Part shown: piece by piece, positions 301 through 54,415 of the stretch
Layout of the letters: every line of letters starts with the position of its first letter
How positions within the stretch are numbered: position 1 is the first letter of the stretch
Sequence record: NZ_KX443399.1
DNA from: a plasmid
Direction: 5' to 3' (one strand)
DNA: 64,000 bases
The notes under the pieces: model-generated
Database searches by the model: none
What the model was told of the DNA's origin: nothing
The model's input: the letters and a program-made list of their open reading frames with translations, nothing else
Program-made: the position numbers and the translations under genes

Positions 301-700
301 TCTCAACCCGTCCCGAAATCATGCACCCATCATACCCCACGACACCCCCGCCCACCAAAACCGCCACGACACCCGAAGCGCCGAACACTGCACTCCCCCA
401 ATCAAACACACGCACACCACCAAGTCGCCATGCGCAAACACACCCAAACCCACACCACGCCAACAAGATTCGCAACTCTTGTTGCGCCACAACACAATTC
501 AAAAACCCGTCATGCGGCGCCCCCTCCGCACCACGCGCCACCCCACGCCACCGAGACCGAACACACCACCCACACCAACCCGCCGGCCCCACACCTCCCA
601 CCCCGCCGGCGCCCAGCCCCGCAGGTGCCGGCCCCACCCGGGACATGCCATCACCCCAGCTCACGGCACAAAAACGCCCCCACACCCCAGTGGGTGTGAG
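300..700. repeat. CA-rich low-complexity tract with extreme strand asymmetry (almost no G/T on + strand); ends in 60-bp block also found at 1640-1700
   Basis: All three + frames open simultaneously (track ORFs 16-699,138-707,479-1216 with P/T/H-rich translations) = absence of stop codons from composition, not coding. Confidence 0.5.
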
Positions 701-1039
701 GGCCTAGCCCTATGCAGAACCGTCCCTAAAGAGGTTCGACGACCAGCCACCGCACAATGCCTCCGACGTTCCAAAGATCTCCCGGGTTATCGAGCGCCGC
801 CTCGTAGACGGCTTCCGCTTGCTCTCCGACGATCTCGCCACGCGAACCCGACGGCGGACTGGGCTCGAGGAACTCGTACGGGTCGGGCCCTGGCCACGCA
901 GGAACCGCTTCAGCGGGGAACCCGATATCGACATACCCCGGCTGACGCACGACGACCCGGTCTGGAAGAGGAGCAGCCGCCGCCACCGCCTCGATATCCG
1001 TGGTTCTCGAACCTGCCTCGTCTCCGCTACCGCAGCCTC

Positions 1040-1330
1040 CCACTGCAAGAACGAGCCCCACCACAGACAAACCCACCGCCACGCGACGTACCCGCACCAC
1101 TACTCCCCCTCCTGTCGACTGAAGCCCCCCCCGTACAAGACCACCATCCCACCCACAACGCGTCTCCGAACCCGGAAACAACACCCAGACCCCGCGAACA
1201 CGATCGACCACACTGACGAACCGGACCGGCTAGGCGACTTCGGGCCGGTCCCACCAGACCGGATCGAACCCCGACCATCGGTTTCGAAACCATCCCGGAC
1301 GCCTGGAACGGCTCACACCCACCTCCGTGG
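1040..1330. repeat. Second CA-rich low-complexity tract
   Basis: same compositional skew as 300-700. Confidence 0.4.
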
Positions 1331-1376
1331 AGCGGAGAATCTACAAACAACCGACCCGAACTGACGGAGGTACACG

Positions 1377-1490
1377 ATGGGCGGGGACTGGCCCTGGTTC
1401 GTTTGGCTCATGTGGCCACCGTTCTTCAACGAACGAGACTGGCAATGGGCCACCGACAACGCACCCTGCTGGCTGACACTGACCTGCTGA
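1377..1490 (+). CDS. small ORF (37 aa), Trp/Phe-rich, possible small membrane peptide
   Basis: ATG preceded by GGAGGT RBS at -8; MGGDWPWFVWLMWPPFF... Confidence 0.3.
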   Translation: MGGDWPWFVWLMWPPFFNERDWQWATDNAPCWLTLTC

Positions 1491-1501
1491 GGGAGGCAAT
1501 C

Positions 1502-1801: not shown

Positions 1802-2020
1802 TCAGACCGGGTCGAACAGCAGTGCCGCCGCATCATGCTCGACAGGACGGACCACGATCCCCTCCCGCTCGACACCCGTGAACCCCATATCCGACAAGGC
1901 CGCGAGCGCATCGCCCAGGTCCACGCAATCCAGGTCCAGTCCCGGCGGCACGTTCACCGTCGCTCGATGGTGCGAGACCTCGGTCCACTCGATCTCCACG
2001 GTCCGCGTCGTCGTGTTCAT
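1802..2020 (-). CDS. hypothetical protein (72 aa)
   Basis: ATG with GGAAGGAG RBS; 25-bp motif copy just upstream; head-to-tail with next gene. Confidence 0.6.
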   Translation of the reverse strand: MNTTTRTVEIEWTEVSHHRATVNVPPGLDLDCVDLGDALAALSDMGFTGVEREGIVVRPVEHDAAALLFDPV

Positions 2021-2322
2021 CGGCGTGCTCCTTCCGCCACCCGCGCCGGGTGGGACGTGTCATCAGTGCTGGTCACGGTCTCGGAGTCGATCCGGATCTC
2101 GATGTCACCGGTGAACGTCAGTCGCTCGACATCGACGACCAGGCCCCCGGTCTCGGGGTCGATCCAGGCGTTGACGCCCGCGCCCTGGTCCTGCGGCAGC
2201 GCGAAGTAGATGTTCGCGCCCGGGCCGCCGTCGAACGGGCAGGTGGCGAGCTGCTCGGTGATCACGCGGGCGGCGGCCGCGTTCGGGTGCGCGGCGGCGT
2301 TGATCTCGGCAACGGTGGTCAT
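2017..2322 (-). CDS. hypothetical protein (101 aa)
   Basis: ATG with GAGAGAGGAG RBS; 4-bp overlap with downstream gene; C-terminus runs through a 25-bp motif copy. Confidence 0.6.
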   Translation of the reverse strand: MTTVAEINAAAHPNAAAARVITEQLATCPFDGGPGANIYFALPQDQGAGVNAWIDPETGGLVVDVERLTFTGDIEIRIDSETVTSTDDTSHPARVAEGARR

Positions 2323-2364: not shown

Positions 2365-2643
2365 TCAGGCCGCGTTTTCGTCGATCCAGGGTTCGTCGTC
2401 GCGGTCCTCGACGTAGTCGCCGCCGGGCGGGTCGTCGTAGTGGCCCCGCAGCGCGGCCCGCGCCTTCTCGGATGCGGCCGCCAGGTTCTCGTCCCGGGCG
2501 TGCTTCCAGTCCTCCCAGTGCCAACCCGCGCCCGCGTCGATCACGAACTCGGTCGCGTCGATCGGCTCGCCGCCGAGGAACGCCTCGATACGGGCAGGAC
2601 CGTCCGGGTCGCGGACGACGATGATTTCCAGTTCAGGGGTCAA
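2365..2643 (-). CDS. hypothetical acidic protein (92 aa)
   Basis: TTG start with GAGAGGAG RBS; protein-like composition. Confidence 0.55.
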   Translation of the reverse strand: MTPELEIIVVRDPDGPARIEAFLGGEPIDATEFVIDAGAGWHWEDWKHARDENLAAASEKARAALRGHYDDPPGGDYVEDRDDEPWIDENAA

Positions 2644-3675: not shown

Positions 3676-3796
3676 TCGGGAGGTTGCCGGTGTCGCCCGG
3701 CGAGCCTTCACCTTTCGCGCAGCTCCCCGACGGACCTGGCCGGCACTTGCGCCGGCCCCTCGCCGGGACGTGTCATCTGTACAGGTCAGGGCGCAA

Positions 3797-3830
3797 AAAG
3801 GCCCCCGCGCCCATGTGGGGCGCGGGGGCG
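3797..3830. terminator. GC-rich hairpin (GGCCCCCGCGCCC/GGGCGCGGGGGC) following a 25-bp motif copy; bidirectional terminator candidate
   Basis: perfect 12-13 bp stem between convergent/serial minus-strand genes. Confidence 0.5.
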
Positions 3831-3860
3831 GATGGCCGGGAACGGCCTACGCGAGAACGG

Positions 3861-4340
3861 TCACGACCCGAACAGCGAGGCCGAGCCGAACGGCGACGAC
3901 GGCGCGGACACGCTGACGAAAGTCGGCGCGGTGGTGGCGGACTGGCTCCAGGCCATCTCAGTACCCCAGACGCCGACGTGCAGCCTCCGGCATCCCCACT
4001 CGACCTGGTAGTCGCCGTCTGCCACGTTTCGGATCTGAAGCTGGCTGACTCCAGGCGTGAGCGTCACGGGCACGAACTCGCGGTTCACGAACCCGACCGA
4101 GTACAGCAACGACACCTTGTCGACGTCCTCGATGGTCGAGCCAGGTTCCACAAGGAATGCGCCACATTCGATGTCGCCACCGGCGTTGTTGGTGACCGCC
4201 AGCGTGACGGTGCTGCCCTTGGCAGTGGCGACGACACTGACGTCTTCCGGTGCCGCCCCGGCGGTACCCGCAGACAGCAACGCCAGAGGCGCTGCGGCCG
4301 CCACAGCCGCAAGCGCCGAACGAACCATGATTCGAGTCAT
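3861..4340 (-). CDS. secreted protein with N-terminal signal peptide (159 aa)
   Basis: MTRIMVRSALAAVAAAAPLALLSAGTAGA signal; flanked by motif+hairpin modules. Confidence 0.7.
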   Translation of the reverse strand: MTRIMVRSALAAVAAAAPLALLSAGTAGAAPEDVSVVATAKGSTVTLAVTNNAGGDIECGAFLVEPGSTIEDVDKVSLLYSVGFVNREFVPVTLTPGVSQLQIRNVADGDYQVEWGCRRLHVGVWGTEMAWSQSATTAPTFVSVSAPSSPFGSASLFGS

Positions 4341-4443
4341 CGGGCAAGGATGCCACTCACACGCCGGTCACCTGCCGAAACTCCCTGGCCATTGCGCCGG
4401 CCCCTCGCCGGGACGTGTCATCTGTGCAGGTCAGGGCATGAAT

Positions 4444-5309: not shown

Positions 5310-5747
5310 CTACGCGCTGCGGCGGGCGTGGGCCTGCACAGCGGCTTCGCGCAGGACCCAGGTGTCGCCGACGCGGGTAGCGGGCAGCTTCTTGGTGTTG
5401 ATGGCCTTCAGGACGCCCTGGCGGCTCACACCGAGCGTGGTGGCCGCTTCGGTGACGGAGACGAGCGGGGGCAGCTCGATCGCGTCGGTGATGCGGTCGT
5501 AGTCGTCGGTGGTGAGCACGCGCAGGGACAGCAGCGTGAACGGGTAGCGGTCGAGGATGGCCAGGGCGGTGGTGTTGGCCTGGCGGACGGATTCGGCGGG
5601 CAGGGTGAACACGACCTCGGTGCGGCCGAGTTCGGAGCGTCCGACCGAGCCGGAGTGGTCGGCGATGGGCTCCATGAGCTGGTCGACGGTCTGCTCGTCG
5701 AACGCGACGTCGAGTTCTGCGGCGACGTTGTAGGACTGTGCGGTCAC
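5310..5747 (-). CDS. DNA-binding protein with C-terminal HTH (excisionase/MerR-like), 145 aa
   Basis: ...VSVTEAATTLGVSRQGVLKAINTKKLPATRVGDTWVL; GTG with GAAAGGACCGAAGAG RBS. Confidence 0.6.
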   Translation of the reverse strand: MTAQSYNVAAELDVAFDEQTVDQLMEPIADHSGSVGRSELGRTEVVFTLPAESVRQANTTALAILDRYPFTLLSLRVLTTDDYDRITDAIELPPLVSVTEAATTLGVSRQGVLKAINTKKLPATRVGDTWVLREAAVQAHARRSA

Positions 5748-7737: not shown

Positions 7738-7888
7738 CCGGGACGTGTCATCTGCGCAGGTCGCACACGGTTTCGGGATGTGTTGGCGGAGACGAAAATT
7801 GCCGAGCAACGAGAGCGTGTCTCGATGCTCGGCAATGACCGATCAGGCGGGCCGGCTACCGGCCGGGACGTGTCATCTGCGCAGGTAG
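7738..7888. repeat. ~150-bp composite element copy A: 25-bp motif - imperfect long hairpin (ATTGCCGAGCA...TGCTCGGCAAT) - 25-bp motif
   Basis: near-identical to 8549-8702; the two copies flank lipoprotein gene 7899-8477. Confidence 0.8.
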
Positions 7889-7898
7889 AAGCGTGTTT

Positions 7899-8477
7899 CT
7901 AGGGCCACTCAGGGTTGGTCCAGTAGGGCGGGATCTCGCTGGCCAGGCCCTCGGCAGTCCTGGTGCCGTTGCTGCTCTGGTTGCAGGGCCCGGACCAGCC
8001 GACGCGCACAGTCGGGCCGTCGGCGTAGTGGAAGGTCGTCCACACGAGCGTCTCCGGGTCACCGATGGACGGCCCTCCGCATCGGCGTGGATTCGCCGGA
8101 CTCGCGCCTGCATTGAACGCGGCGACGACGGCGGCCAGGTCCGCGCCGTCGATACGCCCCGACGCCGCGAGCGGCGGCAGGGGCGGCGTCTGTTCTCCGC
8201 CGGGCTTGTCGTAGCGGCACACCTCGGCGAACAGCGGTGTGTCCGGAACCATCGCCTCGGCGGTGCCGGGACGCGCGAGCCCGAACTCCCATGACGGCCC
8301 GGCCGAGCAATCGACTTCGGTTGTCTCGGTTTCGAACATGGTGACGTCAACGCTCTTCGTCGGTTGGTCGTCGTCGTTGTCGCTTGCGCACCCGGTCAGT
8401 GCCAGCGCGATTCCCGCGCCCGCGCACAGCGCCGCTGCTGTCAGGACGCGGCCGGATGCTCTCGTTGTTTCCCCCAT
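7899..8477 (-). CDS. lipoprotein (192 aa)
   Basis: signal + lipobox ALTGC. Confidence 0.7.
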   Translation of the reverse strand: MGETTRASGRVLTAAALCAGAGIALALTGCASDNDDDQPTKSVDVTMFETETTEVDCSAGPSWEFGLARPGTAEAMVPDTPLFAEVCRYDKPGGEQTPPLPPLAASGRIDGADLAAVVAAFNAGASPANPRRCGGPSIGDPETLVWTTFHYADGPTVRVGWSGPCNQSSNGTRTAEGLASEIPPYWTNPEWP

Positions 8478-8548: not shown

Positions 8549-8702
8549 CCGGGACGTGTCATCTGACCTGGTCGCGCAGGGTTTCGGGATGTGTTGGCGG
8601 AGACGAAAATTGCCGAGCAGCGAGAGTGTGTCTCGATGCTCGGCAATGGGCGATCAGGTGGGGCCGGCTACCGGCCGGGACGTGTCATGTGCACAGGTCA
8701 GG
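8549..8702. repeat. ~150-bp composite element copy B (motif-hairpin-motif)
   Basis: few mismatches vs 7738-7888. Confidence 0.8.
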
Positions 8703-9021
8703 ACTTCTTTTTTCGGCCCATCATGGAGGCGATGAGCGCGAAGCCGAACCAACTGATGGCCGTGCCGCCGATCAGTCCTCCTAGTCCCCAGGTGAGAACG
8801 TCGCCCGGCCATTCCAGTCCGGATACCGAGGTTCCGGGGGCCTCGGTGGGGAACCAGGGGAAGTAGGCCAGTTTCACCGAGCCGGCGATCAGGGCGGCAC
8901 CGGCCCCGGCCAGCCACGCGAGTCCCCCGACGATGGCGAGCACCATTCCGATCAGTTCGAGGGGTTCGACCGCTGCGCGCGGTGCCGGTCGAGGAGCTGC
9001 GACGGTTTGTGCGTCGTTCAT
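8698..9021 (-). CDS. small membrane protein (107 aa)
   Basis: two hydrophobic helices; GAAAGGACT RBS; stop codon supplied by the GGTCAG end of a motif copy. Confidence 0.7.
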   Translation of the reverse strand: MNDAQTVAAPRPAPRAAVEPLELIGMVLAIVGGLAWLAGAGAALIAGSVKLAYFPWFPTEAPGTSVSGLEWPGDVLTWGLGGLIGGTAISWFGFALIASMMGRKKKS

Positions 9022-9107
9022 GGGAGTCCTTTCGGGGTGGGCGTCGTCGGGGCGATCCGATCCGGGACGTGTCGTCTCCGCTTTTCAGGGCATGTTTTCG
9101 GCGATGC

Positions 9108-10301
9108 TCATGCGTGGTTGTCGTCGGGGCCGGCGGGCAGTTCATGCAGCGCGGTGAGGTCGCCGGTGAGGATCTGGAGTCGGGTAGTGATGGCGGCGTG
9201 GAGGTCTCGGGCGTCGGCGGTGAGCCGGTCGAGGTGGCGCACGGTCAGCTCGTCGCCGCCGGTCTGGCGGACAAGGTTCCCGAGGTGGCTGCTGGCGGTG
9301 AGGGATCGTTCGACGGCCTGGAGGGCGAGGTAGTCGGTGTTCAGGGCAGACAGCTCGGCCGCGTACCGGTAGAGGGCGGCGACGCGGCGGGTCAGTGACG
9401 CGGTCACGGTGTCCAGGATCTGCTCGTTTCCGGCGCGCTGGATGCGTGCGCGGAGCGCGGCGTCGCCGTCGCCGTCCGGGGTGGGTCCGAGTGCGTCACG
9501 GGCGCGGCTGATCTCGGTCGCGTGCGCGGTGATCTGCGCGGCTTCGGCGTCGGGGTCGAGCTGGATGCGGTGCACGCTCAGGTCGTCCGACGCCCAGGCC
9601 GGGCAGGCGGTGATCTGGGCGGCGAGCGCGGCGGCGATCTGCGCGAGCTGGTGCTCGGGGGTGCCGGGTTCGGGGCCGGGCTCGGCGACGGTGGCGTGTT
9701 CGAGGGCCCAGTAGTCGGGGCCGCTCAATGCGAGGTCGGCGCGGTTCTCGGCGCGTTCCTCCGCGACTGCGGCGAACAGAAGCGCCCAGGCCAGGGCCGC
9801 GATCGCGGCGATGGTCGACGGCGAAGGTTCCAGCGGGCCGAACAGCATGGCCGCGGCGAGCCCGACCGCGACGACTGCGAGCAGGTTCCGCAGGGTGGCG
9901 AGTCGGCCGCTGGCGTGGAAGGCGTCGACGAACCTGTCGAGCATGGAGTCCGTCCGGCCGCTGGTGTCCTCGGTGTGGGGCAGCTGGGCACGTAGCGCGT
10001 CGCGCTGCCGCCTGGTGAGCGCCGAGCCGGTCAGCGCGTCGGAGGTCGATGAATCGGGGGCGGCGATCGCACTGGCGTTGTGGGCGTGCCGGGGCACCGG
10101 CAGGCCCTGTGCTTCGCGGCGGACGAGTTTGGCCGCCAGCGCCTTCGGCAGGCGGGTGCGGTCGATCGTCGATTGCTGCGGCAGCGGGACCGGGTCGATC
10201 GGGGCGGCGAGCAGTTCGTTGATGCGGGTCTCGGACGCGGTGACGCGGTCGTCGGCACCGGTCAGGGCCGCTTGTGCGTCAGTGAGCCAGTCGCGGGCCA
10301 C
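9108..10301 (-). CDS. membrane protein (~397 aa), coiled-coil/TM
   Basis: GTG with GGAG RBS; TM segments LLAVVAVGLAAAMLFGPL.../IAAIAALAWALLFAAVA; upstream part of track ORF is Arg-rich junk. Confidence 0.6.
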   Translation of the reverse strand: MARDWLTDAQAALTGADDRVTASETRINELLAAPIDPVPLPQQSTIDRTRLPKALAAKLVRREAQGLPVPRHAHNASAIAAPDSSTSDALTGSALTRRQRDALRAQLPHTEDTSGRTDSMLDRFVDAFHASGRLATLRNLLAVVAVGLAAAMLFGPLEPSPSTIAAIAALAWALLFAAVAEERAENRADLALSGPDYWALEHATVAEPGPEPGTPEHQLAQIAAALAAQITACPAWASDDLSVHRIQLDPDAEAAQITAHATEISRARDALGPTPDGDGDAALRARIQRAGNEQILDTVTASLTRRVAALYRYAAELSALNTDYLALQAVERSLTASSHLGNLVRQTGGDELTVRHLDRLTADARDLHAAITTRLQILTGDLTALHELPAGPDDNHA

Positions 10302-13319: not shown

Positions 13320-13367
13320 GCGCGGTCCTTACCTTTCGTCAGATGTGCAGGTCAGGGGCGGCGCGGG

Positions 13368-33566: not shown

Positions 33567-33619
33567 TCAGAATCTCTGGGACGTGCCGTTTTACCTGCTA
33601 GACAGCCCTTTTCGATTCA

Positions 33620-42250: not shown

Positions 42251-42392
42251 CACCGATGCAACGCCCCTACCAGCACCGTTGCGTGATTACACAACGCGGA
42301 ACGCGTGAAAAGCCAAGATGCAATGAGGCCCCACCGGCTGGTACCCGGCAGGGCCTCGGCGACCGGGACAACCCTGGAAGGAACCCCGATCA

Positions 42393-43598
42393 ATGACCGA
42401 CCTTAATCTCCGCGCGGCGCGCATTCAGCTCTACGGGCTGATCGCCGCCCTCGTCTTCGCGATCGCCGTCGCCATCGGTCTCACGACGGGCGCATTCACG
42501 CTCAGCTTCTCCGTGTTGCGTGACCTCGCAACGCAGGGGCTCATGCCGGCGCAATGGGCCTGGATCTTTCCCGCAGTCGTCGACGGCGCGATCCTCGGCG
42601 CAACGATCGCTGTGGTCGTCCTGAGCAAGATCGACGGCAGCGACGAGGGTAAGAAGTTCTTCGTCAGGCTGCTCGTTGCGGTGGTGTGCATCAGCGTTGT
42701 CGGCAACGCGTTCCACGCCTACCAGGCCGCTCAGGAAGCCGCCCGCAAGATCGCCCAGGGGATCGACATCGGGTTCATGCCCCTCGCTCCGGCGGCGGCA
42801 GCGGCAATTGCCGTCATTCCGCCGCTGCTGGTTCTGGCCTTCAGCCACGGCATTGGCATCCTCATCAAAGCGATCGGCAACGCCTACCGCGAGTTCAACG
42901 CTCTGGTGGATCAGGCCACCGCGATCGACGACGCGACGACGACGCCCGTTGCGCAGCCCACGCCCGTTGCGCAGCCCACGCCGCCGGCCTCCGTGGACAT
43001 TGCATCCCCGATGGCCGTTGCGCCGGTCATGGACCAGGGCGTTGCACCGGATACGGCAACGCCGGAAGCCGATGCGGACTCGCAGCCGACCGGCCCTGTC
43101 GTCGACGCGCCCACGGTGGCTCTCGCGCTGACGCCCGTTGCGGACGTCGTTGCGCCCATTGCGGACGACATTGCGGTCGTTGCGCCTGCCGTTGCGCCCG
43201 TTGCGGACGTTGCGCCGGTGGACGTTGCACTGTTCGAGGTCATTGCGCCGCCCGTTGCGATCGACGCAACGACCGCGGCAGAACCTGCAACTGCGACCGC
43301 GGAGGATGCGCCGGCACTCACGGTCGAGGACCTGCTCGCGTTCATCGACAGCTCCAGCCTCGCTGAGAACGTCCGCGAGACCGCCCGTCTGAAGATCAGT
43401 CAGCCGACGATGTCCTTTGCCGCGATTGCCGCGAGGACCGGCACTCCTCACGCGAGCACTGCGCTGCGGCGTTACCAGCGAGCTGAATCGGAAGCTCTCG
43501 CCGCTGGATTCACCTTCCCGCCGCTGCCGGATCTCGATGACCCCAACACCGACGCTGAAGACGCGCACGCCGCTACACGAGAGCTGGTGCACCATTGA
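42393..43598 (+). CDS. DUF2637-like membrane protein with repetitive PVA-rich linker (401 aa)
   Basis: 4 N-terminal TM helices; TPVAQPTPVAQPTP and (P)VAD/VAP repeats. Confidence 0.8.
   Translation: MTDLNLRAARIQLYGLIAALVFAIAVAIGLTTGAFTLSFSVLRDLATQGLMPAQWAWIFPAVVDGAILGATIAVVVLSKIDGSDEGKKFFVRLLVAVVCISVVGNAFHAYQAAQEAARKIAQGIDIGFMPLAPAAAAAIAVIPPLLVLAFSHGIGILIKAIGNAYREFNALVDQATAIDDATTTPVAQPTPVAQPTPPASVDIASPMAVAPVMDQGVAPDTATPEADADSQPTGPVVDAPTVALALTPVADVVAPIADDIAVVAPAVAPVADVAPVDVALFEVIAPPVAIDATTAAEPATATAEDAPALTVEDLLAFIDSSSLAENVRETARLKISQPTMSFAAIAARTGTPHASTALRRYQRAESEALAAGFTFPPLPDLDDPNTDAEDAHAATRELVHH
42940..43275. repeat. ~15 copies of (C)GTTGCG(C) at 9/12-bp phasing embedded in DUF2637 coding sequence
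   Basis: Val-Ala dipeptides uniformly encoded GTT-GCG despite high-GC codon bias; reverse complement of GCAACG array in parG-like gene. Confidence 0.6.
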
Positions 43599-45427
43599 TG
43601 AGCGCAGACGAGACAGGCGCCGAGCAGTTCGCGCTCTTCGATATGGGGGGCGCTCCCGAGACGGTCGCGGAAACCGTGGCCGCTGAGCCTGAATCCGAAT
43701 CGGCCGAGCTCGAAACCGAAATGGTCGACGACGAGGCTGCCGACGACGAGGCTGCCGACGACGAGGACGCCGCCGACGAGGACGCCGCCGAAGCCGCGGG
43801 GGAGGGGACCGCCAGCGAGCCGCGCCCGTGGGAAGCGCTGCCCGTGACCGACGATGCTGACGGGCACGCGATCATCGTCACCGCCGAAGCCACATACAGC
43901 CCGTCCGGTGCCCGGCTGACCGGCCCGGTCGACACGATCGAGAAGCTGGAGAAGCTGATCCAGTGGGCCGCGCTGACCCCGCACGGTCTCACCGCGCAGG
44001 TGTGGTTCGTCGGCATCGACTCCTGCGCGCAACTCGGCTGGGAGATCGACCCGGGCAGCGAGGACGACGTCGACGACCTCGAGCAGCTGCGTGTGCGCGC
44101 TGTGGAGGAGCTGAACAAGGCGATCGCCGCGACCCTGCCTCCGCTGATCGCCGCCGGGTGGGAGCTGCGCGGAGACCCGGGCTACGTCGTGCACCTCAAG
44201 CGTGAGATCGGCAAGGCCACCCAGCTGGTCGACGTCATCCTCGAGCCCTACGTGTGGACCTACTGGAACAAGGACTTCGGCTGGGGTAACCGCATCGGCG
44301 ACATGGGCATCCTCGGCAGCCCGACCGCCGGCACCTACCTGCCCGACGAGGACCTGCCGGCCGCCCGCGAGCTGGGCCGTCGCCTGGCCTGGTCGGCCAA
44401 GCACCTCGGCACCCTGCCTGGACCCACCCCGGCCCGCACCGGTGCCGCTGTCCTGGACAAGATTCGCCGCGAACGCATCCGGTCGGGCAAGGGCATCGTC
44501 GTTACCGCTGGAGGCCCGGTTCCGCCGATCGACGGCGCACCGCGAGGCGATTTCGAACCGGCCGCAGGCTGGTCCCGCGTGCCGGACACCGACGACCTCG
44601 ACAACGCCACGCAGCTGGTCACGATCGACCAGCGCGCCGCCTACCTGGCATCGGCCGGCATGCTCGCCTTCGGATACGGCAAGGCCCGCCACCTGGCCGG
44701 AGAGGATGCAGCCGCGGCGGCCGCAGCCGACAAGCCCGCGTTCGGGATCTGGCGCGTAACCCTCCCCGCCGCAGGCCAGTACGCGCTCCCGGAGAAGCTG
44801 CCGCTTCCGCACCCGGCGATGCTCGAGGACCAGCCGGTGCAGACGTGGATCACCACCGTCAGCTTGGAGGGGCTGTGTGCCCCGATCGCCGACGGCGGCA
44901 TGGGCCTGGACGTCGACGACCTCGACGTGACCGAGGCGTGGGTCTACGCGGAGCAGGGGAGGGCCCTGGACAAGTGGTCGAAGGTGCTCCGCGAGGCCCG
45001 CGCCGTGGCGACCGAGACCCGTGACGTGGCGATGAAGCGGTTCCTGGGCGCCTGCTACAAGGGCTACGTCGGCCGAATGGTCAACCCCGACATGTGGACC
45101 GCGACCCGCATGCAGCACCACCACCAGCCGCTGTGGAGGGCCGCGATCATGGCTCACTGCCGGTGGCGAGGTCGCCGCGTCGCGATGCGTATCGCTCGCG
45201 AGACCGGCCGCTGGCCGATCCGGACAATGACCGACTCGTGGGTGTACCTGCTCGGCGACGGCGAGAACATCTCCGACGACAGCGATGCGTTGGGCAAGAT
45301 GACCCTGGAGAAGCACGTAGAGCTGACCGACGAGATGATCTTGTCGTTCGCCTCCGCAGAGACCACACACGACGTACGCCTCGCGATCGCCGCGGCGTAC
45401 AACACCGACACCGACGAGGAGGACTAG
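43595..45427 (+). CDS. large hypothetical protein with acidic N-terminus (610 aa); possible replication/establishment function
   Basis: ATGA overlap with upstream gene; no recognisable motif. Confidence 0.6.
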   Translation: MMSADETGAEQFALFDMGGAPETVAETVAAEPESESAELETEMVDDEAADDEAADDEDAADEDAAEAAGEGTASEPRPWEALPVTDDADGHAIIVTAEATYSPSGARLTGPVDTIEKLEKLIQWAALTPHGLTAQVWFVGIDSCAQLGWEIDPGSEDDVDDLEQLRVRAVEELNKAIAATLPPLIAAGWELRGDPGYVVHLKREIGKATQLVDVILEPYVWTYWNKDFGWGNRIGDMGILGSPTAGTYLPDEDLPAARELGRRLAWSAKHLGTLPGPTPARTGAAVLDKIRRERIRSGKGIVVTAGGPVPPIDGAPRGDFEPAAGWSRVPDTDDLDNATQLVTIDQRAAYLASAGMLAFGYGKARHLAGEDAAAAAAADKPAFGIWRVTLPAAGQYALPEKLPLPHPAMLEDQPVQTWITTVSLEGLCAPIADGGMGLDVDDLDVTEAWVYAEQGRALDKWSKVLREARAVATETRDVAMKRFLGACYKGYVGRMVNPDMWTATRMQHHHQPLWRAAIMAHCRWRGRRVAMRIARETGRWPIRTMTDSWVYLLGDGENISDDSDALGKMTLEKHVELTDEMILSFASAETTHDVRLAIAAAYNTDTDEED

Positions 45428-46222
45428 ATGGCGCTGCACCTGCCGAAGCCGCGGTCGAAGTCCGTCCCGCAGAAGGCTGTCGGTCTCGACGGCACGAAGG
45501 TCAAGATCGCCGCGGCGGCGGCCGCGGGTGTGGCCAAGTCTCAGGAGACCAGCAGCGGACTTGCGGGCCTGACCGCGAAGGTGCCGGTCAAGCAGATGCG
45601 CGCCGAGATCGGCAACGACGGTTTGCGACAGGCTGCGATCGACGCCGGCCGCAAGCCGCCGTCGGACCGCACGCTGCGTCGCTGGGCGCAGCAAGGCCGC
45701 ATCCCCAACGCCGAGATCGCCGAGCTGGCGCAGCGTCGCGCTGCGATCGAACGACTCGGCGGGGTGAAGGCAGTCGCGAAGAAGATCGGCCGCGATCCGT
45801 CGTCGGTGCGTAAGTACCTCTCCGGCAAGACCAACGAGCTGCGCAACGACGCGAAGTCGAAGCTGAAGGCCGCCAAGGCGAAGGACACCATGCAGAAGGC
45901 CGGCGTTTTGCGGCCGGACGGGACTCCGAAGGTCGCAACGATCCAGGTCACCGGCCGGGTCCACGTCCGCAACGGAGACGAAACGGGTTACGACTACCGC
46001 ACCCGCACACTCGACTTCGCGAACTCCGACACCCCGTTCAGTGCCGCCGAGTCGCAGGAGCTTGCAGCCGCCCTGGCCAACGACGACCAGGCCCGCGTCG
46101 TGGCGATCCTCGAACGCCACGCCACCATCGACTACCCCGAGAACAAGGGGTTCGACAACTACGGCGACCAGTTCGGCTTCCACTTCGACGCCATCGACAA
46201 GCTCGACGTCACCTGGCACTGA
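45428..46222 (+). CDS. hypothetical protein with HTH-like segments (264 aa)
   Basis: DRTLRRWAQQGRIP / RDPSSVRKYLSG. Confidence 0.65.
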   Translation: MALHLPKPRSKSVPQKAVGLDGTKVKIAAAAAAGVAKSQETSSGLAGLTAKVPVKQMRAEIGNDGLRQAAIDAGRKPPSDRTLRRWAQQGRIPNAEIAELAQRRAAIERLGGVKAVAKKIGRDPSSVRKYLSGKTNELRNDAKSKLKAAKAKDTMQKAGVLRPDGTPKVATIQVTGRVHVRNGDETGYDYRTRTLDFANSDTPFSAAESQELAAALANDDQARVVAILERHATIDYPENKGFDNYGDQFGFHFDAIDKLDVTWH

Positions 46223-48415: not shown

Positions 48416-48669
48416 GCCCCCGCGCCCACAACCCCACCGCTCGCTGGACCTCGTGCGAGAAATGCGGGCACCGCGGCTATCACACCCGCGGTGACGCAAA
48501 AGCTGTCCGCAAGCGTCATCACGGAGAGAAAGGGATGTCCGTGTTCCCCTGTCCCCACACCGAGGGCCTGTTCCACGTCGGCCACCGCCCAGAAGCACTG
48601 ACCAGCGGCGAAATCGACCGACACCTGCTCCGCAACCAGGCCGTGCAGGCACTAGCAGGGGAGTGGTGA
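48412..48669 (+). CDS. small Cys/His zinc-finger-like protein (85 aa)
   Basis: CEKCGHRGYH...CPHTEGLFH; ATGA overlap. Confidence 0.5.
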   Translation: MSPRAHNPTARWTSCEKCGHRGYHTRGDAKAVRKRHHGEKGMSVFPCPHTEGLFHVGHRPEALTSGEIDRHLLRNQAVQALAGEW

Positions 48670-49415
48670 TGAGCGTCTTCAAGCGAGGAACCCTGATCGC
48701 CGCGGTCGCGGCCCTGGTCCCCCTCGGTGTCGTCGTGGCCAACGAGACCACCTCGAATGGCCCCTCGTCTGCGCCGGTTCCGGCCGCGTCGTCGGCGAGT
48801 CTCGGCGATCCCGCGACTGCCGCACCCGATGTCGAGGAGCTGATCGCGCAGCTGACCGTCGTCGACGAACTGCCCAAGGTGCCCGGCTACGAACGTGATT
48901 GCACCAAGGACAAAGCCTGCGTCTACGGGCCCGCCTGGACCGACAACTACGTCGGCCGCGACTCGAGGAACGGCTGTGACACGAGGAACGATGTCCTCGG
49001 CCAGCAGCTCGTGAACGTCACGTTCAAGCCCGGAACCCGCGACTGCAAGGTCACCGGCGGCCTGCTGCACGACCCGTACACCGGCAAGAACATCGACTTC
49101 GACCCGAAGAAGCCGTCCGCTATCCAGATCGACCACGTGTTCCCACTCGCCCGTAGCTGGCGTGCCGGGGCGGCGAACTGGAGCATCGAGCAGCGCACCG
49201 CCTTCGCCAACGACACCGAACGCAACCTGCTCGCAGTCGACGGCCCCGCAAACCAGGCCAAGTCCGACAAGGGCCTCGACACCTGGATGCCGACGAACAC
49301 CGACTACCACTGCGACTACGCCCGCACCTACCTCAACGTCGCCGCCACCTACCACCTCGCGGTCACCCGCGGCGACGTCGAATCCGCCCGCAGTGCTTGC
49401 GCACTGGGGCAGTGA
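48663..49415 (+). CDS. secreted HNH-type nuclease (DUF1524/GmrSD C-terminal-like)
   Basis: signal peptide; GCDTRNDVL...IDHVFPLARSW...N motifs. Confidence 0.7.
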   Translation: MVMSVFKRGTLIAAVAALVPLGVVVANETTSNGPSSAPVPAASSASLGDPATAAPDVEELIAQLTVVDELPKVPGYERDCTKDKACVYGPAWTDNYVGRDSRNGCDTRNDVLGQQLVNVTFKPGTRDCKVTGGLLHDPYTGKNIDFDPKKPSAIQIDHVFPLARSWRAGAANWSIEQRTAFANDTERNLLAVDGPANQAKSDKGLDTWMPTNTDYHCDYARTYLNVAATYHLAVTRGDVESARSACALGQ

Positions 49416-50444: not shown

Positions 50445-50706
50445 GATGCGTTCTCCTCTGTGAAGGGGATCGCGGACCGCCACGGATCGCGACAGTCCTT
50501 CCCCCTCTTCTGGCGTGGGAGGGGAAAAAGCCCAGTGCGCCCCCGAAAATGAGCCACCTCGACGATTGCGCCGCGCCACCACCCGGTTGTCACTTAGCAA
50601 GCACAGCTTGTAAGGTGGACCCATTGGAAGCGATCTGCCCCGCAGTCCGCGGGTGCCGGCAGCAGGCCAGATCAGAAATGGCCGCGAGAAACAGGGGGTG
50701 AACAGG

Positions 50707-52974
50707 ATGAACGACACGTCCCGCGACGCAATCGTCCTCGCGCTGCCTCTGCGTTGGCCCGCTGACCGCGATGCCTTGGCGCGCACCCACATCGGTGGAG
50801 GGGACGTGTCGTCTTCCCAGTACGATGCCCCTATGTGTCGCTCGAAAGCTCACGGAACTGGCCGCCGCTGCCCCGGTTGTGGCAGCTACGGGGCCGCCGC
50901 GAAGGCCAACGCGAACCGCCGGCTCGGTCGCGAGGCCCGGAAGAAGGTCGTCGACCACCTCAAGGAACAGGGGCTGGTCGAGTCCGCCGCCGCCATCCAG
51001 GCGGCGCCGCCGAGCGTGCTCCAGGAGTTCATGGAAGGACTCGGCATCGACCCCGAGATCCTCGGCAAGACCCCGATGCCGAGCACCCACGCGAACCCGC
51101 CCAGCGCGAAACTACTGATCGCGCAGGCGAAAGCGGAGCGCGAGAAGCTGGCCGGCCCGAAGATCACCCCGGCCCAGGCCGCTCTCGATGAGGCCGAAGC
51201 GAACGCCGTCAAGGCTGACGCCGAGGCGGAGGAGGCAACCAAGACCGCCAAGAGGCTCCGGGCGCGGGTCACCACAGCCAAGCGGAAACTCAAGGAGGGC
51301 ACAGGCACCGAAGAGACCGTCGCGGAGAAGCAGAAGGACTTCGACGAGGCCAAGGCCGCCGCGTTCGACGCGCAGCGCCGCCAGTCCGAGGCCCACGACG
51401 ACCTCGCGGCCGCGAAGTTCGGCATGCGAGAGGACATGGCTGACGAAGACCGTGACGCCTACTACGCCTCGCTGTCCGACGACGACGTCGCCGCGATCAG
51501 CCGGTCCCTGAACCGCAAGTACGCGGACGAAGCAACCGAGGCGCTGGCCGAGGGGCCAATCGTCTCGCCGGCCGGAATCGAGCGCGACACCAGCGTCTAC
51601 AAGTCGGGGAAGATCCCGATGGAAACAGGATCGGGTGTCGAGGAGGCCGAGGGCCGCTACCTCGACGGCGGTACCGCGATCGTGCGCCGGGGGTCCGGGG
51701 ATTTCGTTGTCCTCCAGCGCAAGGGCGACGCCTACCACCCGGTGGCTGTAGCGAACGGTAAGCATGACGCCCTCGCCAAGGCCAACCGCATCCCGATCCT
51801 GGTTGAGCCCGAACCGCTGCCGGCCAACGCCACTGAGATGCAGAAGCAGGCGCACTCGGTGAAGGGAGATGCGCTTCTCGCGGTCGCCAGCGAAGCGGCA
51901 GCCGGCAAGGCGTCCACCACAGCCGCGCAGCAGAAGGTCATCAACGACGAGCTGGCCGGCGCGCACGAGAAGATGACCGACTCGATCGGCGCCGGCCCGG
52001 TCCGCGCCGACATCTACGACGGCACCAAGCGTCACCAGAAGCGCATGCGCGAGCTGGCCGCTGTGCAGGCCGGCGAGAAGGCCCGCGCCGACGCACTCGC
52101 GGCCGGCAAGACGAAGGTGCAGGCCGATCAGGCGTACGAGAGGGCCCACCGCCGCGCACTCGGCACACCGACCCGCGGCGGCGGCGTGATCCCGCACTTC
52201 GAGCACAAGATCCCGCCGGAGAGCCTGGGTGCCGAAAAGCACGCGTCCCTGCACCGCAGCGGTATCCGCGCGTTCGGCAAGGAAACCGCCGACGACTACG
52301 CGGTGATCCATCAGCGGGCCGGCGACCTGAAAGCGTGGGGATTCTCGGTCAGCGGGCAGAAGGTGCACACCTCCGACCTGTCGAAGCTGACGGCGACGAA
52401 CTCGGCATTCGTGAAGAAGGTGCTCGACTCTTCCGAGCGCAGCGCGCTGACGACCTACACCGGCGGCAGCTACCACTCGATCAACGCAGCGATCACCGGG
52501 CGCGATCCGAACCCGGCCGCGTCGACCAAGTCAATCGTCAGTGGCATCGAGTCGGCGTTCGACAAGTTCAACGAGCACAACCCGAACAACGAGCCGATGA
52601 CCGTCATGCGCGGCACCCGGGTGCCCAGTGGCTGGAAGGGCACCGCGGCCGAGTACATCGACCAGGCGTTCACCGTCGGCTCGAAGGTGCAGATCGGCAA
52701 AGTCACCTCCACGACGACCCGCCAGGCCACCGCGCAGGGCTTCACCGGGCACCCGCCGTACATGATGGTCATCCGCACCCGCAATGGCCTTCCGGTGAAG
52801 TCGATCTCGATGTACAAGAGCGAAGACGAGGTCATCGTCCCCACCGGCACCGAGCTGCGCTGCGTCAAGGTCGACCACAAGGGCATCAACGGAGTCCCGA
52901 CCGTGTGGCTCGTCGCCGAAGACCTGGTCGCCGAGGCCGACGGGTCCCCGTCGCCACTGAAGTCCGTCGCATAG
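50707..52974 (+). CDS. R-S-E class ADP-ribosyltransferase (C3/VIP2/SpvB-like ART domain) at C-terminus of large protein with N-terminal zinc-ribbon and long Ala/Glu/Lys-rich helical region; alt. start ~50833
   Basis: YTGGSYHSINAAITG (Y-x-x-x-x-Y-x-x-IN), MRGTRV (Arg), TSTTT (STS), SEDEVIVPTGTEL (E-x-E) in canonical order; CPGCGSYG near N-terminus. Confidence 0.8.
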   Translation: MNDTSRDAIVLALPLRWPADRDALARTHIGGGDVSSSQYDAPMCRSKAHGTGRRCPGCGSYGAAAKANANRRLGREARKKVVDHLKEQGLVESAAAIQAAPPSVLQEFMEGLGIDPEILGKTPMPSTHANPPSAKLLIAQAKAEREKLAGPKITPAQAALDEAEANAVKADAEAEEATKTAKRLRARVTTAKRKLKEGTGTEETVAEKQKDFDEAKAAAFDAQRRQSEAHDDLAAAKFGMREDMADEDRDAYYASLSDDDVAAISRSLNRKYADEATEALAEGPIVSPAGIERDTSVYKSGKIPMETGSGVEEAEGRYLDGGTAIVRRGSGDFVVLQRKGDAYHPVAVANGKHDALAKANRIPILVEPEPLPANATEMQKQAHSVKGDALLAVASEAAAGKASTTAAQQKVINDELAGAHEKMTDSIGAGPVRADIYDGTKRHQKRMRELAAVQAGEKARADALAAGKTKVQADQAYERAHRRALGTPTRGGGVIPHFEHKIPPESLGAEKHASLHRSGIRAFGKETADDYAVIHQRAGDLKAWGFSVSGQKVHTSDLSKLTATNSAFVKKVLDSSERSALTTYTGGSYHSINAAITGRDPNPAASTKSIVSGIESAFDKFNEHNPNNEPMTVMRGTRVPSGWKGTAAEYIDQAFTVGSKVQIGKVTSTTTRQATAQGFTGHPPYMMVIRTRNGLPVKSISMYKSEDEVIVPTGTELRCVKVDHKGINGVPTVWLVAEDLVAEADGSPSPLKSVA

Positions 52975-53034
52975 CCTGAAAAATGTACATCTAGCTGGGG
53001 ATACGACACGTCCCCTTATCGAGAGAAGGCCACC

Positions 53035-53208
53035 ATGAGCGGCAAACTGAGCCAGGACCAACTCGACGACATCCGTGCCCATCTCAAGCAGGGAATGTCG
53101 CCCAGGGAAGTCGCGGACTACTACGGCCGCGTCGCAGACCTCGACCTCATCGAGATCGCACGTATCCGCACTGCCGCATACGAAATCGAGCAAGAGGAGC
53201 AAGCGTGA
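53035..53208 (+). CDS. small Hin/resolvase-like HTH protein (57 aa)
   Basis: AGAAGG RBS; LSQDQLDDIRAHLKQGMSPREVADYYG; below track cutoff; 4-bp overlap with ARH gene. Confidence 0.5.
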   Translation: MSGKLSQDQLDDIRAHLKQGMSPREVADYYGRVADLDLIEIARIRTAAYEIEQEEQA

Positions 53209-54287
53209 CAGCACCGGCAACCAACGACGCCGCCCAGCGCGCCCGCTACGGCAACGCCCTGAGCGGTCTCGCGGCCGGTGACGCCTGGGGCTACCAAGTC
53301 GAGTTCACCTCGTACGCATCCATGCCGGCCTACCCCGTGGCCGCGCCGGCAGGGGAGTGGATCGTCAGCGACGACACCCAGATGACCCTCGCGCTGCACG
53401 ACGCGCTCGCCGAGGTCACCGACTTCGACGACATCCCCGCGGTCACCGACGCGATCGTCCGCCACTTCGTCCTATGGCAGGTCGACCCCGACAACAACCG
53501 GGCACCGGGTCGCGCGTGCATGGGCTCGCTGCACCGGCTGCGTGCCGGCGCCCGCTGGTACGACAAAGACGGCGCGCGTGAATCCGCCGGCTGCGGCGCC
53601 GTGATGCGTCTGGCACCAGCTGCTTTCGCGCCGGAACCGTACTGGCCCGGGCTGACCGCGCTCCAGGCCGTCATCACCCACAAGCACCCGCGCGCCATCG
53701 TGCCCGCGCTGCTGCTAGCCGACGCGATCCGGCACGCCCCCGACCGCGGCGGCCTGCTCCTCGAGCACGCCCTCGCCGAGGCCGACCGGATCTACGCAGG
53801 CACCAGCGACTGGCTGACCGATCCGTACCTCGCTGACGTCCTCGCCCCCTACCGAGGGGACGTGTCATCTGTACTGGTAGACGGCCTGAATGATGATGTC
53901 GTGGACCTACTGAACGTGGCCGCTGAGGCCCGGGACCGGCTCGACCAGCTTGACCCCGCCGACTTCGGTGACCCGTGTGCCGGCATCGGTCAGGGCTGGG
54001 AGTCCGCCAGCGCGATCGCTCTCGGCCTGCTGGCCGCGGACCTCGCGACGTCCCAGGGTGGAACAGACACAGCACCTTTGACCGGGCCCGAAGCGCTGGC
54101 GTGGGCGGCCACCAGCAACGGCGACTCCGATTCCATCGCGTGCATCGCCGGAGCGGTCATCGGCGCCGCGTACCCAGCGCCGGACTACTGGAGCCTGTCG
54201 GGCCTGACGCCTCGGTTCGAACCCCGCTACGCCACCGAGATCGCCGCGGCCGCCGGTCAACTGCCCGGGGCGTCGTCGGCAGAGTGA
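53205..54287 (+). CDS. ADP-ribosylglycohydrolase (ARH/DraG family)
   Basis: LAAGDAWGYQVEF... signature N-terminus, Asp-rich metal-site segments; contains an in-frame 25-bp motif copy (GDVSSVL). Confidence 0.85.
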   Translation: MTAPATNDAAQRARYGNALSGLAAGDAWGYQVEFTSYASMPAYPVAAPAGEWIVSDDTQMTLALHDALAEVTDFDDIPAVTDAIVRHFVLWQVDPDNNRAPGRACMGSLHRLRAGARWYDKDGARESAGCGAVMRLAPAAFAPEPYWPGLTALQAVITHKHPRAIVPALLLADAIRHAPDRGGLLLEHALAEADRIYAGTSDWLTDPYLADVLAPYRGDVSSVLVDGLNDDVVDLLNVAAEARDRLDQLDPADFGDPCAGIGQGWESASAIALGLLAADLATSQGGTDTAPLTGPEALAWAATSNGDSDSIACIAGAVIGAAYPAPDYWSLSGLTPRFEPRYATEIAAAAGQLPGASSAE

Positions 54288-54415
54288 TCGCAGGGGCACA
54301 CCCCGTAGGTGAAATGGGGCGTGAACTGCGACGATGACACGTCCCCCTTTCCTGAGATGGATAGGGAGGCGGCGAGATTCGTCGCAGGAGAACCACCCAC
54401 AGCAAGGGGGAGAAG

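Follow-up and report, generated by a model that had tools for sequence, protein, structure and literature searches.

Repressors of the mycobacteriophage L5 type act through more than 20 asymmetric sites, which are located in promoters and in short intergenic spaces (PMC9283540). These stoperators are strictly oriented to transcription and reversed ones fail (PMC9283540). The attC sites of integrons (VCR, Vibrio cholerae repeats) are imperfect palindromes that are read as folded single strands, and attC arrays adjoin an integrase gene and attI. The pdif (XerC/D) sites of Acinetobacter are about 25-28 bp long, are common to many backbones of one bacterial group, flank varied accessory modules in alternating orientation and are read by a conserved host enzyme. 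The guide and uptake sequences, namely FtsK orienting polar sequences (KOPS), SpoIIIE recognition sequences (SRS), the Streptomyces TraB recognition sequences of clt (clt-TRS), the DNA uptake sequences (DUS) of Neisseria and the uptake signal sequences (USS) of Haemophilus, are dispersed, oriented DNA words with cores of 8-12 bp that occur about once per kb, also inside genes. The stoperators of Cluster A mycobacteriophages have the 13-bp consensus GGTGGMTGTCAAG. In this work, we describe a family of copies of an asymmetric 24-bp motif in a stretch of 64,000 nucleotides from the plasmid record NZ_KX443399.1 (hereafter the window) and compare it with these systems.

Judged by its alignment, the window comprises the left telomere and the leftmost 64 kb of a linear virulence plasmid of the pVAPN type from Prescottella (Rhodococcus) equi. 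Positions 65-64000 align with positions 1-62283 of pVAPN03-56 (NZ_AP024199, linear, 125,271 bp) at 97-99.7% identity, and the right end of the window is the start of the vap island. We tentatively read the motif as a DNA-level protein recognition site that may punctuate transcription units and may also be a crossover point. We infer that a protein binds the copies and that its binding affects transcription. A sequence-specific DNA-binding protein, either host-encoded or common to many Mycobacteriales plasmids, would read a strongly asymmetric element of about 36 bp on DNA and not on RNA. The copies in short spacers at gene 3' ends would divide the plasmid into gene or operon units. Over a promoter, as at the toxin-like ADP-ribosyltransferase (ART) gene, the bound protein would make the copy an operator. 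Between units, it would form a roadblock or an insulator that limits read-through, as with the mycobacteriophage stoperators. The copies would also be sites where modules are gained, lost or replaced.

The 25-mer pattern GGGACGTGTCATCTGNGCAGGTCAG, searched with at most three mismatches, matches the window 10 times and 100 dinucleotide shuffles not once. A 15-mer core (at most three mismatches) gave 20 matches vs 3.1 expected, and exact matches to the 10-bp core GGGACGTGTC number 22. With a position weight matrix (PWM) of 27 columns, 25 copies were identified at a score of at least 17 (22 on the + strand and three on the - strand) vs none in 30 shuffles. Two decayed copies (13340-13358 and 40768-40799) were found in addition. 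The repeat family that an earlier note had described from the letters of the window is thus real. Most of the coordinates given in that note were right within 1 nt, while two were off by 10 (15541 for 15531 and 33588 for 33578). The copy at 15040 had been omitted and the one at 53857 had been given solely as a GDVSS peptide. What had been placed at 13335 is the right-half remnant at 13340-13358, and the copy placed at 40767 is a split copy (40768-40799) without GGGAC. The window is free of copies from 54.4 to 64 kb. The complete plasmid has no copy in the part from 52.6 to 77 kb, which comprises the relaxase region and the horizontally acquired vap island.

We aligned 116 non-identical copies, taken from pVAPN, pNSL1 and contigs of Mycobacteriales, and numbered the positions starting with the first G of GGGAC. 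As related plasmids have many orthologous copies, counts over this set are not wholly independent. The consensus is G1 G2 G3 A4 C5 (G>A)6 T7 G8 (T>C)9 C10 (A/G)11 T12 (C>T)13 T14 n15 (C/T)16 (G/C)17 C18 (A/T)19 G20 (G/T/C)21 T22 C23 A24, with an information content of about 30 bits. Positions 4, 7 and 12 are conserved in 99-100% of the 116 copies and position 15 is random. A T-run follows the motif at 8-10 bp, with TTT present within positions 27-40 in 39% of the copies vs 4.5% at control offsets. The element, which consists of the 24-bp motif and the phased T-run, spans about 36 bp overall and is longer than the 25 bp noted earlier. Such position-specific conservation over 24 bp together with a phased T-run is typical of protein-DNA recognition.

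The motif is neither confined to the window nor specific to pVAPN, and is also found in plasmid-like DNA of Rhodococcus, Nocardia, Mycolicibacterium and Mycobacterium. Plasmid pNSL1 of Rhodococcus sp. NS1, whose backbone genes are about 75-80% identical to those of the window, has 29 copies. Many of these are at orthologous sites, namely after the DD-endopeptidase stop, after rep, before the ART gene, inside the ADP-ribosylhydrolase (ARH) gene and beside the telomeric repeat. Plasmid 3 of R. opacus PD630 has 15 copies, and a BLAST search with the consensus gave matches on 53 Rhodococcus plasmids, pRHL1-3 and pBD2 among them. A pattern scan of one genome per species gave, among the matches listed, mostly single chance matches. 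Also among the matches listed, loci with at least two PWM matches belong to Rhodococcus, Nocardia, Mycolicibacterium and Mycobacterium, with the one exception of an unclassified 'Actinomycetes bacterium' metagenome-assembled genome (locus L033), and these multi-copy loci have up to 7 copies in 8 kb. One Nocardia locus with the motif has a RepA_C replicon and zero proteins in common with the window. The related plasmid of R. fascians A21d2, which has the same FtsK/ParA backbone, has just 4 copies in 40 kb, and an M. avium plasmid with an ART gene has about one good copy in 43 kb. A phage origin was considered and rejected; a megablast search against phages was empty and a pattern scan of viral contigs gave three single matches. 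No description of the motif was found in the open literature that was searched, the papers on pVAPN and Rhodococcus plasmids being silent on it, and a literature search with the sequence string returned solely unrelated eukaryotic primers.

The motif could in principle act in RNA, as an untranslated-region signal, a processing site or an antisense target, and an RNA-level element was one of the candidates in the earlier note. The location of the copies beside ribosome-binding sites or stop codons implies that they are transcribed, and forward and reverse copies would be complementary RNAs. However, mutual information did not identify Watson-Crick covariation among the motif columns, and folding across the motif is weaker than in its surroundings. 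The two orientations are about equal within 40 nt after stop codons (27 vs 23), which is incompatible with an RNA signal. A small open reading frame (ORF) from the internal GTG or ATG (positions 6-8) was also rejected, as the ORF lengths are the same as in other frames. The scan of the whole window against Rfam 15 (E<=1) returned a sole match, which is sub-threshold and unrelated to the motif. An RNA-level role is therefore very improbable. The Rfam match in question ('sar', 42321-42390(-), 38.9 bits vs a gathering score of 43) lies in the spacer 5' of the DUF2637 gene and is probably just a hairpin.

The placement of the copies relative to genes was determined with a codon-usage gene caller, whose calls for the window agree with the PGAP annotation of pVAPN03-56; genes outside pVAPN and pNSL1 were called with our own caller. 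The claim that the copies are mostly intergenic was borne out, as 102 of the 116 copies (88%) are intergenic. Read along the motif, a stop codon is on the 3' side of 66 copies and on the 5' side of 48, and a start codon is on the 5' side of 49 and on the 3' side of 32. Fifty of the 114 stop-facing sides are within 40 nt of the stop, vs 14 of the 81 start-facing sides within 40 nt of the start. The TGA of the reverse-complement cTGAcc is the actual stop codon in 12 of the 116 copies, including four in the window (2343, 8677, 15142 and 15631), so that the motif-supplied stop codons reported earlier do exist. By spacer class, 43 copies have the reverse complement running towards the next gene, 25 have the forward motif doing so, 22 are in convergent spacers and three are in divergent spacers. 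Per kb of backbone spacer, there are 1.53 copies between convergent genes, 1.26 between co-directional genes and 0.20 between divergent genes. A copy is present in 44% of the convergent spacers but in 10% of the divergent spacers (Fisher p=0.0009). Internal copies are absent from the long backbone operons (FtsK-ParA and VirB4-like), which have only one at the end. The depletion in divergent promoter regions and the concentration at gene 3' ends argue that the motif is not a classical operator, and the spacer distribution with the operon-end placement is the opposite of what is expected of a promoter or a classical operator.

These distributions also bear on the proposal that the motif is a promoter for an alternative sigma factor, e.g. 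the extracytoplasmic function (ECF) type of pVAPN, or for a sigma-adaptor, read in the CTGACC..GTCCC direction in the arms. In its favour, the order in the arms is upstream stop, terminator hairpin, motif, ribosome-binding site and gene, and 12 starts are 14-48 nt from motif position 1. In its asymmetry and its length of about 25 bp, the motif is similar to single-factor promoters. An ECF sigma factor is encoded by pVAPN, and the forward motif at the ART gene has a -10 hexamer inside it. However, a gene 3' end is faced by 48 of 97 copies in one reading direction and by 66 of 98 in the other, and convergent spacers are enriched while divergent ones are depleted 6-8-fold. A -35/-10 pair could not be fitted, as the candidates would be 13 or 15 nt apart with a 'spacer' that is itself conserved. 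Plasmid pNSL1, with its 29 copies, has no annotated sigma factor, and a plasmid ECF sigma factor was rejected as the universal partner on that ground. This makes the promoter proposal rather unlikely. The earlier statement that no canonical -35/-10 promoter can be fitted holds for the generic copies, with the ART copy and its embedded TAnGAT as the single exception. The same note had about 10 copies just upstream of start codons, whereas about 5-8 are located within 73 nt of a start in the orientation CTGACC..GTCCC to gene. By-eye fits to SigA, ECF, SigF and PafBC (RecA-NDp) promoters and to DosR, PhoP, MtrA, parS, dif, Tn3 inverted-repeat, relaxase nic and T7-primase sites were fragmentary, e.g. 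the RecA-NDp TGTCR at the wrong spacing or a GGGAC half-site. The ECF-type sigma factor (Sigma70_r2 and r4_2) is encoded at 90267-90794 of pVAPN03-56, outside the window, beside a CopG-family gene.

The copy at the ART gene shows how a bound protein could act on initiation. The conserved ART start is ATG 50833, at position 33 of the motif (position 34 in PD630 plasmid 3), and there is no ribosome-binding site upstream of it. The hexamer at positions 21-26 is TACGAT in pVAPN and pNSL1, TAAGAT in pVAPN1572 and AAAGAT in PD630 plasmid 3. It is located 6-7 nt 5' of the ART ATG (6 nt in the window), an arrangement that is conserved in the four plasmids. In mycobacterial leaderless genes, the A/GTG start is preceded by a TANNNT hexamer at a distance of 6-7 nt, and by this rule the ART promoter would be leaderless. 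The motif would then cover about -33 to -13 of the promoter, where a bound protein would control initiation. Of the earlier candidates, an operator for a plasmid-encoded global regulator comes nearest to our reading; it agrees with this overlap with the ART core promoter and with the DNA-level behaviour of the motif, and disagrees with its depletion in divergent promoter regions. The 'DTSR' peptide reported in the ART is non-coding, as the conserved start is downstream of the copy at 50801. The ORF caller and the earlier reader had extended the ART gene upstream to 50653.

The copy inside the ARH gene is kept in three Rhodococcus plasmids (pNSL1 and locus L069 besides the window). Its spelling is GGG GAC GTG TCA TCN GTN CTG GTA, with rare codons in genes that have about 90% G+C at third codon positions; those of the window copy are TCA, TCT and GTA. 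The GDVSS peptide that had been reported in the ARH is thus present. In the ARH homologues of Mycolicibacterium, the similar peptide T(T/S)DVAGMLAEG is spelled with ordinary codons, and the motif is absent. The rare codons and the motif-free homologues indicate that the DNA word itself is maintained. Orthologous copies elsewhere vary at degenerate positions only, while plasmid genes are 75-85% identical and the coding DNA beside these copies is saturated at synonymous sites.

Indels and steps in divergence between pVAPN variants coincide with copies of the motif. The window has an extra 811 bp compared with pVAPN03-56, which comprises gene 7899-8477 and one motif-hairpin-motif block. The hybrid block of pVAPN03-56 switches parent inside CCGGGACGTGTCATCTG, within the 17-bp core; longer homology is available nearby, and a junction in the core has a chance probability of about 13%. 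To the right of the gene for an 85-aa regulator there is a variable-cargo locus (14298-15038 in the window), which is 26 bp in pVAPN03-56, 0.74 kb in the window (ORF 14307-15014, no Pfam match) and 3.6 kb in pVAPN1572 (a GntR regulator and four more genes). Homology to both pVAPN03-56 and pVAPN1572 resumes at the first position of copy 15040. At copy 4410, the mismatches to pVAPN03-56 fall from 22 in the left 300 bp to 0 in the right 300 bp, and a similar step is found at 640. Gene 3861-4304 (module 3790-4410) is about 12% diverged from the pVAPN03-56 allele between flanks of at most 3%; here the allele of one small orphan gene, which has homologues in pVAPN plasmids only, has been replaced. 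The homology of the ART-HTH-ARH block (HTH, helix-turn-helix) with pNSL1 runs from the outer edge of one inverted copy (50793) to that of another (54346). In the R. fascians A21d2 plasmid (locus L134, 640-780), the orthologs of the DD-endopeptidase gene and of 32232-32819 overlap by ATGA, and in pVAPN, pNSL1 and other plasmids they are separated by a 230-bp motif-hairpin-motif unit. The same sequence of at least 25 bp recurs between unrelated or diverged modules, so the copies can serve as sites of module exchange. The left-arm genes that were sought in other contexts are pVAPN-only orphans.

These boundaries can also be read as the work of a dedicated cassette-recombination site of the integron attC/VCR or pdif kind, with a recombinase of the host or a plasmid and with the left arm as a subtelomeric cassette array. 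All 15 left-arm copies have one orientation and are located between small orphan genes, at or over their stop codons, which is how attC sites follow small, often orphan genes in a uniformly oriented array. The cassette-sized gain, loss and replacement between close relatives, with junctions in the site (the 811-bp indel, 15040 and 4410), is similar to that of attC arrays, and varied cargo is flanked by copies on other backbones too. Between its conserved arms, the motif has a centre of low information at positions 15-17. As with pdif, the site has a comparable length, is common to many backbones of one bacterial group and would have a conserved host enzyme as its reader. However, no integrase, transposase or other recombinase, serine recombinases included, is annotated or was detected in the shared backbone (PGAP annotation of pVAPN03-56 and pNSL1; Pfam and NCBIfam scans of the uncharacterised proteins), so the breakpoints may be by-products of homologous recombination at identity islands. 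The dyad arms of tyrosine- or serine-recombinase core sites are absent, as the motif has no dyad beyond 5 inner base pairs and, unlike pdif, neither resembles dif nor has 11-6-11 arms around a 6-bp spacer. Unlike attC, copies also occur singly at operon ends across the backbone, and unlike the alternating pdif sites, they form direct-repeat runs. Active sites should delete the DNA between close direct pairs, yet 24 such pairs persist, and the ARH-internal and ART-promoter copies have been conserved in place over long divergence. A dedicated cassette site is therefore doubtful. A similarly doubtful proposal is that an undescribed system of module exchange or punctuation in Mycobacteriales plasmids would use the motif as its cis site, both to insulate units and to catalyse or target cassette swaps. 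Its reader may be a conserved host or plasmid protein dissimilar to known integrases or repressors, with the asymmetric word of 25-36 bp placed after each gene. Such a system, if true, would give linear plasmids of actinobacteria, a virulence plasmid and the classic catabolic ones among them, a gene-cassette platform of a new kind.

The orientation of the copies follows blocks and not genes. Adjacent copies have the same orientation in 64 cases vs 25, and copies at most 400 bp apart form 24 direct vs 5 inverted pairs. The clustering in blocks (runs test P=0.006 in pNSL1 and 0.046 in pVAPN) is independent of gene direction. Genes of the window run leftward from about 22.3 kb to the telomere and mostly rightward from 23.7 kb. 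The fixed orientation relative to genes that had been claimed is found in the left arm only; in 32-54 kb the + copies run parallel to + genes, so that orientation relative to genes is not fixed. As reported earlier, the reverse copies of the window are found solely at the ART/HTH/ARH locus, with an inverted pair at the ART start. Near the ends of many linear Rhodococcus plasmids, the copies are on the + strand at the left and on the - strand at the right. The map does not follow a simple two-arm rule, as 57-65 kb of pNSL1 and 91-118 kb of pVAPN run the opposite way. A strong, terminator-like GC hairpin is bracketed by 6 of the 18 short direct pairs. An obligatory motif-hairpin unit was rejected, as 3'-side hairpins are modestly enriched and only 6 of the 18 direct-pair spacers fold significantly.

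The blocks and the strand bias of the window (22 vs 3) suit a polar architecture site, which would guide or load a conjugative translocase of the FtsK/SpoIIIE type, or prime or terminate replication. An FtsK/SpoIIIE protein is encoded by each dense plasmid examined. Uptake sequences are missing from foreign DNA, and the motif likewise does not occur in the recently acquired vap island. The Haemophilus uptake sequence has a T-tract flank, as does the motif, and some copies are beside terminators like DUS. However, the motif, at about 30 bits, has far more information than the known guide sequences of 8-12 bp, is far rarer and is three times longer than the 8-bp words, and close pairs are mainly direct, unlike the inverted DUS pairs. 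The candidate of a recognition sequence for the FtsK-like translocase, raised in the earlier note, gains from the block-uniform orientation and loses from the lack of two arms and from a spread in density of about 10-fold among FtsK-bearing plasmids; the R. fascians plasmid, for one, has 4 copies in 40 kb. Guide sequences are oriented by arm and the motif by block. The FtsK gamma domain was not detected in the 718-aa protein (Pfam), and the 8-fold depletion in divergent spacers is left unexplained. We consider a polar site unlikely.

A selfish or neutral short dispersed repeat, similar to REP (repetitive extragenic palindromic) elements or miniature transposons and without function for the plasmid, would account for the bias to gene ends and convergent spacers, which is the classic distribution of tolerated insertions. 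The decayed or degenerate copies (13340, 40768 and 15040), the variable presence at orthologous junctions and the spread over genera and backbones also fit it. However, the motif is too short for such an element. As noted earlier, the motif is not a palindrome, and it has no terminal inverted repeats, which separates it from REP/BIME (bacterial interspersed mosaic elements) and from miniature inverted-repeat transposable elements. The backbone annotation includes neither a Y1 nor a DDE transposase. Orthologous copies are under purifying selection, the ARH copy is held against codon bias and the placement at ART is conserved. A functionless repeat is therefore quite improbable.

With regard to the tentative reading as a protein-read boundary site, the motif resembles the mycobacteriophage stoperators in behaviour and is not a member of the family. 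Like those of Cluster A, the copies are asymmetric and non-palindromic, number tens per replicon and belong to Mycobacteriales hosts. Both families are found mainly in short intergenic spaces by stops and starts, with a few over promoters (PMC9283540), and share the string GG....TGTCA. The stoperators are 13 bp with another consensus (GGTGGMTGTCAAG), whereas the motif is 24-36 bp with GGGACGTGTCATCTnnnCWGGTCA. The phage consensus diverges with repressor specificity, whereas the motif has one consensus over four genera. The motif is on plasmids and not on phages, and no gp71-like repressor was detected among the HTH proteins of the window (Pfam and PHROGs scans).

A reader that is host-encoded or very widely shared among plasmids is suggested by the single consensus over four genera and different replicons and by the HTH genes of the window, which are free of copies in their own promoters. 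The same consensus on unrelated backbones of four genera likewise argues against a pVAPN-specific regulator. The HTH proteins of the window matched (Pfam, PHROGs) HTH_17 in the case of a 145-aa protein (5310-5747) and, weakly, of the 85-aa protein (14053-14310), HTH_3 twice in tandem in the case of a 143-aa protein, and the phrog_597 'DNA binding protein'; no immunity-repressor family was found among them in these scans. The 143-aa protein (35657-36088(-)) has two tandem HTH_3 (Xre) domains, is divergent from the rep-region operon and is kept in pNSL1 and in loci L086 and L101. By its domain layout it could bind an asymmetric site as a monomer. Covariation of the motif with the 85-aa regulator was rejected, as the R. 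fascians regulator is 55% identical, yet the consensus is the same at lower density.

The following points weigh against a protein-read boundary site. No binding protein was identified, and the PWM scan found no copy in the promoter regions of the window HTH genes. The orientation relative to transcription is only 43:25, plus 22 convergent copies, whereas stoperators are strictly co-oriented (PMC9283540). The mostly direct close pairs and the block-wise orientation are not predicted by a simple roadblock model. The copy density varies about 10-fold between related backbones. The consensus is identical even though the candidate regulator is 55-100% identical and the replicon types differ, which would not be expected of a plasmid-specific pair of repressor and operator.

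The motif is common on pVAPN, the bovine/human virulence plasmid of R. equi, and on the large catabolic linear plasmids of Rhodococcus (BLAST matches in pRHL1-3, pBD2 and the PD630 plasmids). Should it prove to be a boundary site read by a protein, it would help to explain how the expression of dozens of orphan genes and of the toxin-like ART/ARH pair is silenced or partitioned and why the arms are so mosaic, and would lead to a DNA-binding protein common to Rhodococcus, Nocardia and mycobacterial plasmids. The consensus is also a sharp marker of this plasmid pool in draft genomes and metagenomes, and predicts recombination breakpoints.

The copies of the left arm are all on the + strand. The copies at 640-664 and 1654-1678 are variants (GGGACATGCCATCACCCCAGCTCAC) with a PWM score of 21.6 each. 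The former, with an A-run and a GC hairpin after it, is located shortly within the inner limit of the telomeric inverted repeat. Its ortholog is at 543 of pNSL1, and on the two sides of this copy the mismatches to pVAPN03-56 per 300 bp go down from 26 to 4. The latter also has a hairpin next to it. The copy at 2052-2076 (pattern and PWM) is within the 3' end of the coding sequence 2017-2322(-), 31 nt 5' of the start of 1802-2020(-). The copy at 2343-2368 (core and PWM) has a 1-nt insertion and fills a 42-bp gap between two - strand genes, where it supplies the TGA stop of 2365-2643(-) and is 20 nt 5' of the ATG of 2017-2322(-). The copy at 3765-3789 (pattern and PWM) is followed by an A-run and a GC hairpin, the terminator of 3861-4304(-), and is the left edge of a high-divergence module. 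The copy at 4410-4434, at the sharp recombination boundary, is a perfect consensus with no mismatch to GGGACGTGTCATCTGNGCAGGTCAG.

The remaining left-arm copies were identified by the PWM, except for the remnant described below. The copies at 7740-7764 and 7865-7889 form a direct pair around a hairpin; the former has the crossover of the 811-bp indel in its core, and the latter is 9 nt from the stop of 7899-8477(-). A second, duplicated pair is formed by 8551-8575 and 8677-8701, the latter supplying the stop of 8698-9021(-). The copy at 9064-9088 is 19 nt from the stop of 9108-10301(-) and 42 nt from the start of 8698-9021(-). The decayed right-half remnant at 13340-13358 (CAGATGTGCAGGTCAGGGG) is about 20 nt 5' of the ATG of 12282-13319(-). 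The copy at 15040-15064 is degenerate (GAGATGTGTCGCC..., PWM 17.4) and is the fixed right edge of the variable-cargo locus. It pairs around a strong hairpin with the copy at 15142-15166, which supplies the stop of 15163-15516(-). The copy at 15531-15555 is 14 nt 5' of the ATG of 15163-15516(-) and pairs around a hairpin with 15631-15655, which supplies the stop of 15652-16173(-), where the FtsK/ParA operon ends.

To the right, the PWM copies on the + strand begin at 32001-32025, directly after the TAG of the DD-metalloendopeptidase gene at the end of a type IV secretion-like operon and next to a very strong hairpin. This copy has orthologs in pNSL1, pVAPN1572 and loci L092 and L101 and is missing in R. 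fascians, where the two genes overlap. It pairs with 32174-32198, which is 33 nt 5' of ATG 32232 and co-directional with that gene. The copy at 33431-33455 is 16 nt past the stop of 32866-33414(+) in a convergent spacer and pairs around a hairpin with 33578-33602, 17 nt from the stop of fabG (33620-34318(-)). The copy at 39794-39818 is 14 nt past the stop of the Rep gene (38385-39779(+)), and its orthologs after rep are at 35682 of pNSL1 and 440 of L101. The + strand copy at 40768-40799 is disrupted (TGTCATCTG, an insertion of 12-13 bp, GCAGGTCAGGG) and is located upstream of parA.

At the ART-HTH-ARH block, the copy at 50698-50722(-) (core and PWM) is back-to-back with 50801-50826(+) (core and PWM) in the divergent spacer 5' of the ART gene; the latter is over the ART core promoter, and the homology to pNSL1 begins at 50793. 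The other three copies of the block were identified by the PWM. The copy at 52990-53014(-) is 15 nt from the ART stop and 20 nt from the start of a 57-aa gene, and fills the 60-bp gap between them. The copy at 53857-53881(+) is inside the ARH gene and encodes GDVSSVLVD. The copy at 54321-54345(-) is 33 nt past the ARH stop, at the right edge of the block.

Other features of the window concern its ends and its backbone. The first 64 nt or so are beyond the pVAPN03-56 record. Positions 57-330 are telomere-like DNA with nested palindromes around GCTGCGC, and 68-527 are a terminal inverted repeat, with an inverted match of 86% identity to the right end of pVAPN03-56. The G+C content of the window is about 68% and goes down to 56-63% at 58000-64000, the start of the vap pathogenicity island, where there are no copies; the annotation of pVAPN03-56 has Lrp/AsnC, Lsr2 and vapO at this start. 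A 610-aa protein (43595-46222(+)) weakly matches Tap, a telomere-associated protein (NCBIfam NF047542), at E=7e-7 and far below the threshold, and together with the next protein of 264 aa it may be the telomere-replication pair of this invertron. Directly 5' of parA (40950), positions 40800-40950 are unusually AT-rich with the short repeats GATCT and AGATAAG, and may be a centromere or a promoter region. The product of 48663-49415(+), annotated as an HNH endonuclease, matches GmrSD_C and HNH_4, and is predicted from these domains to be a type IV restriction-like nuclease on the plasmid backbone.

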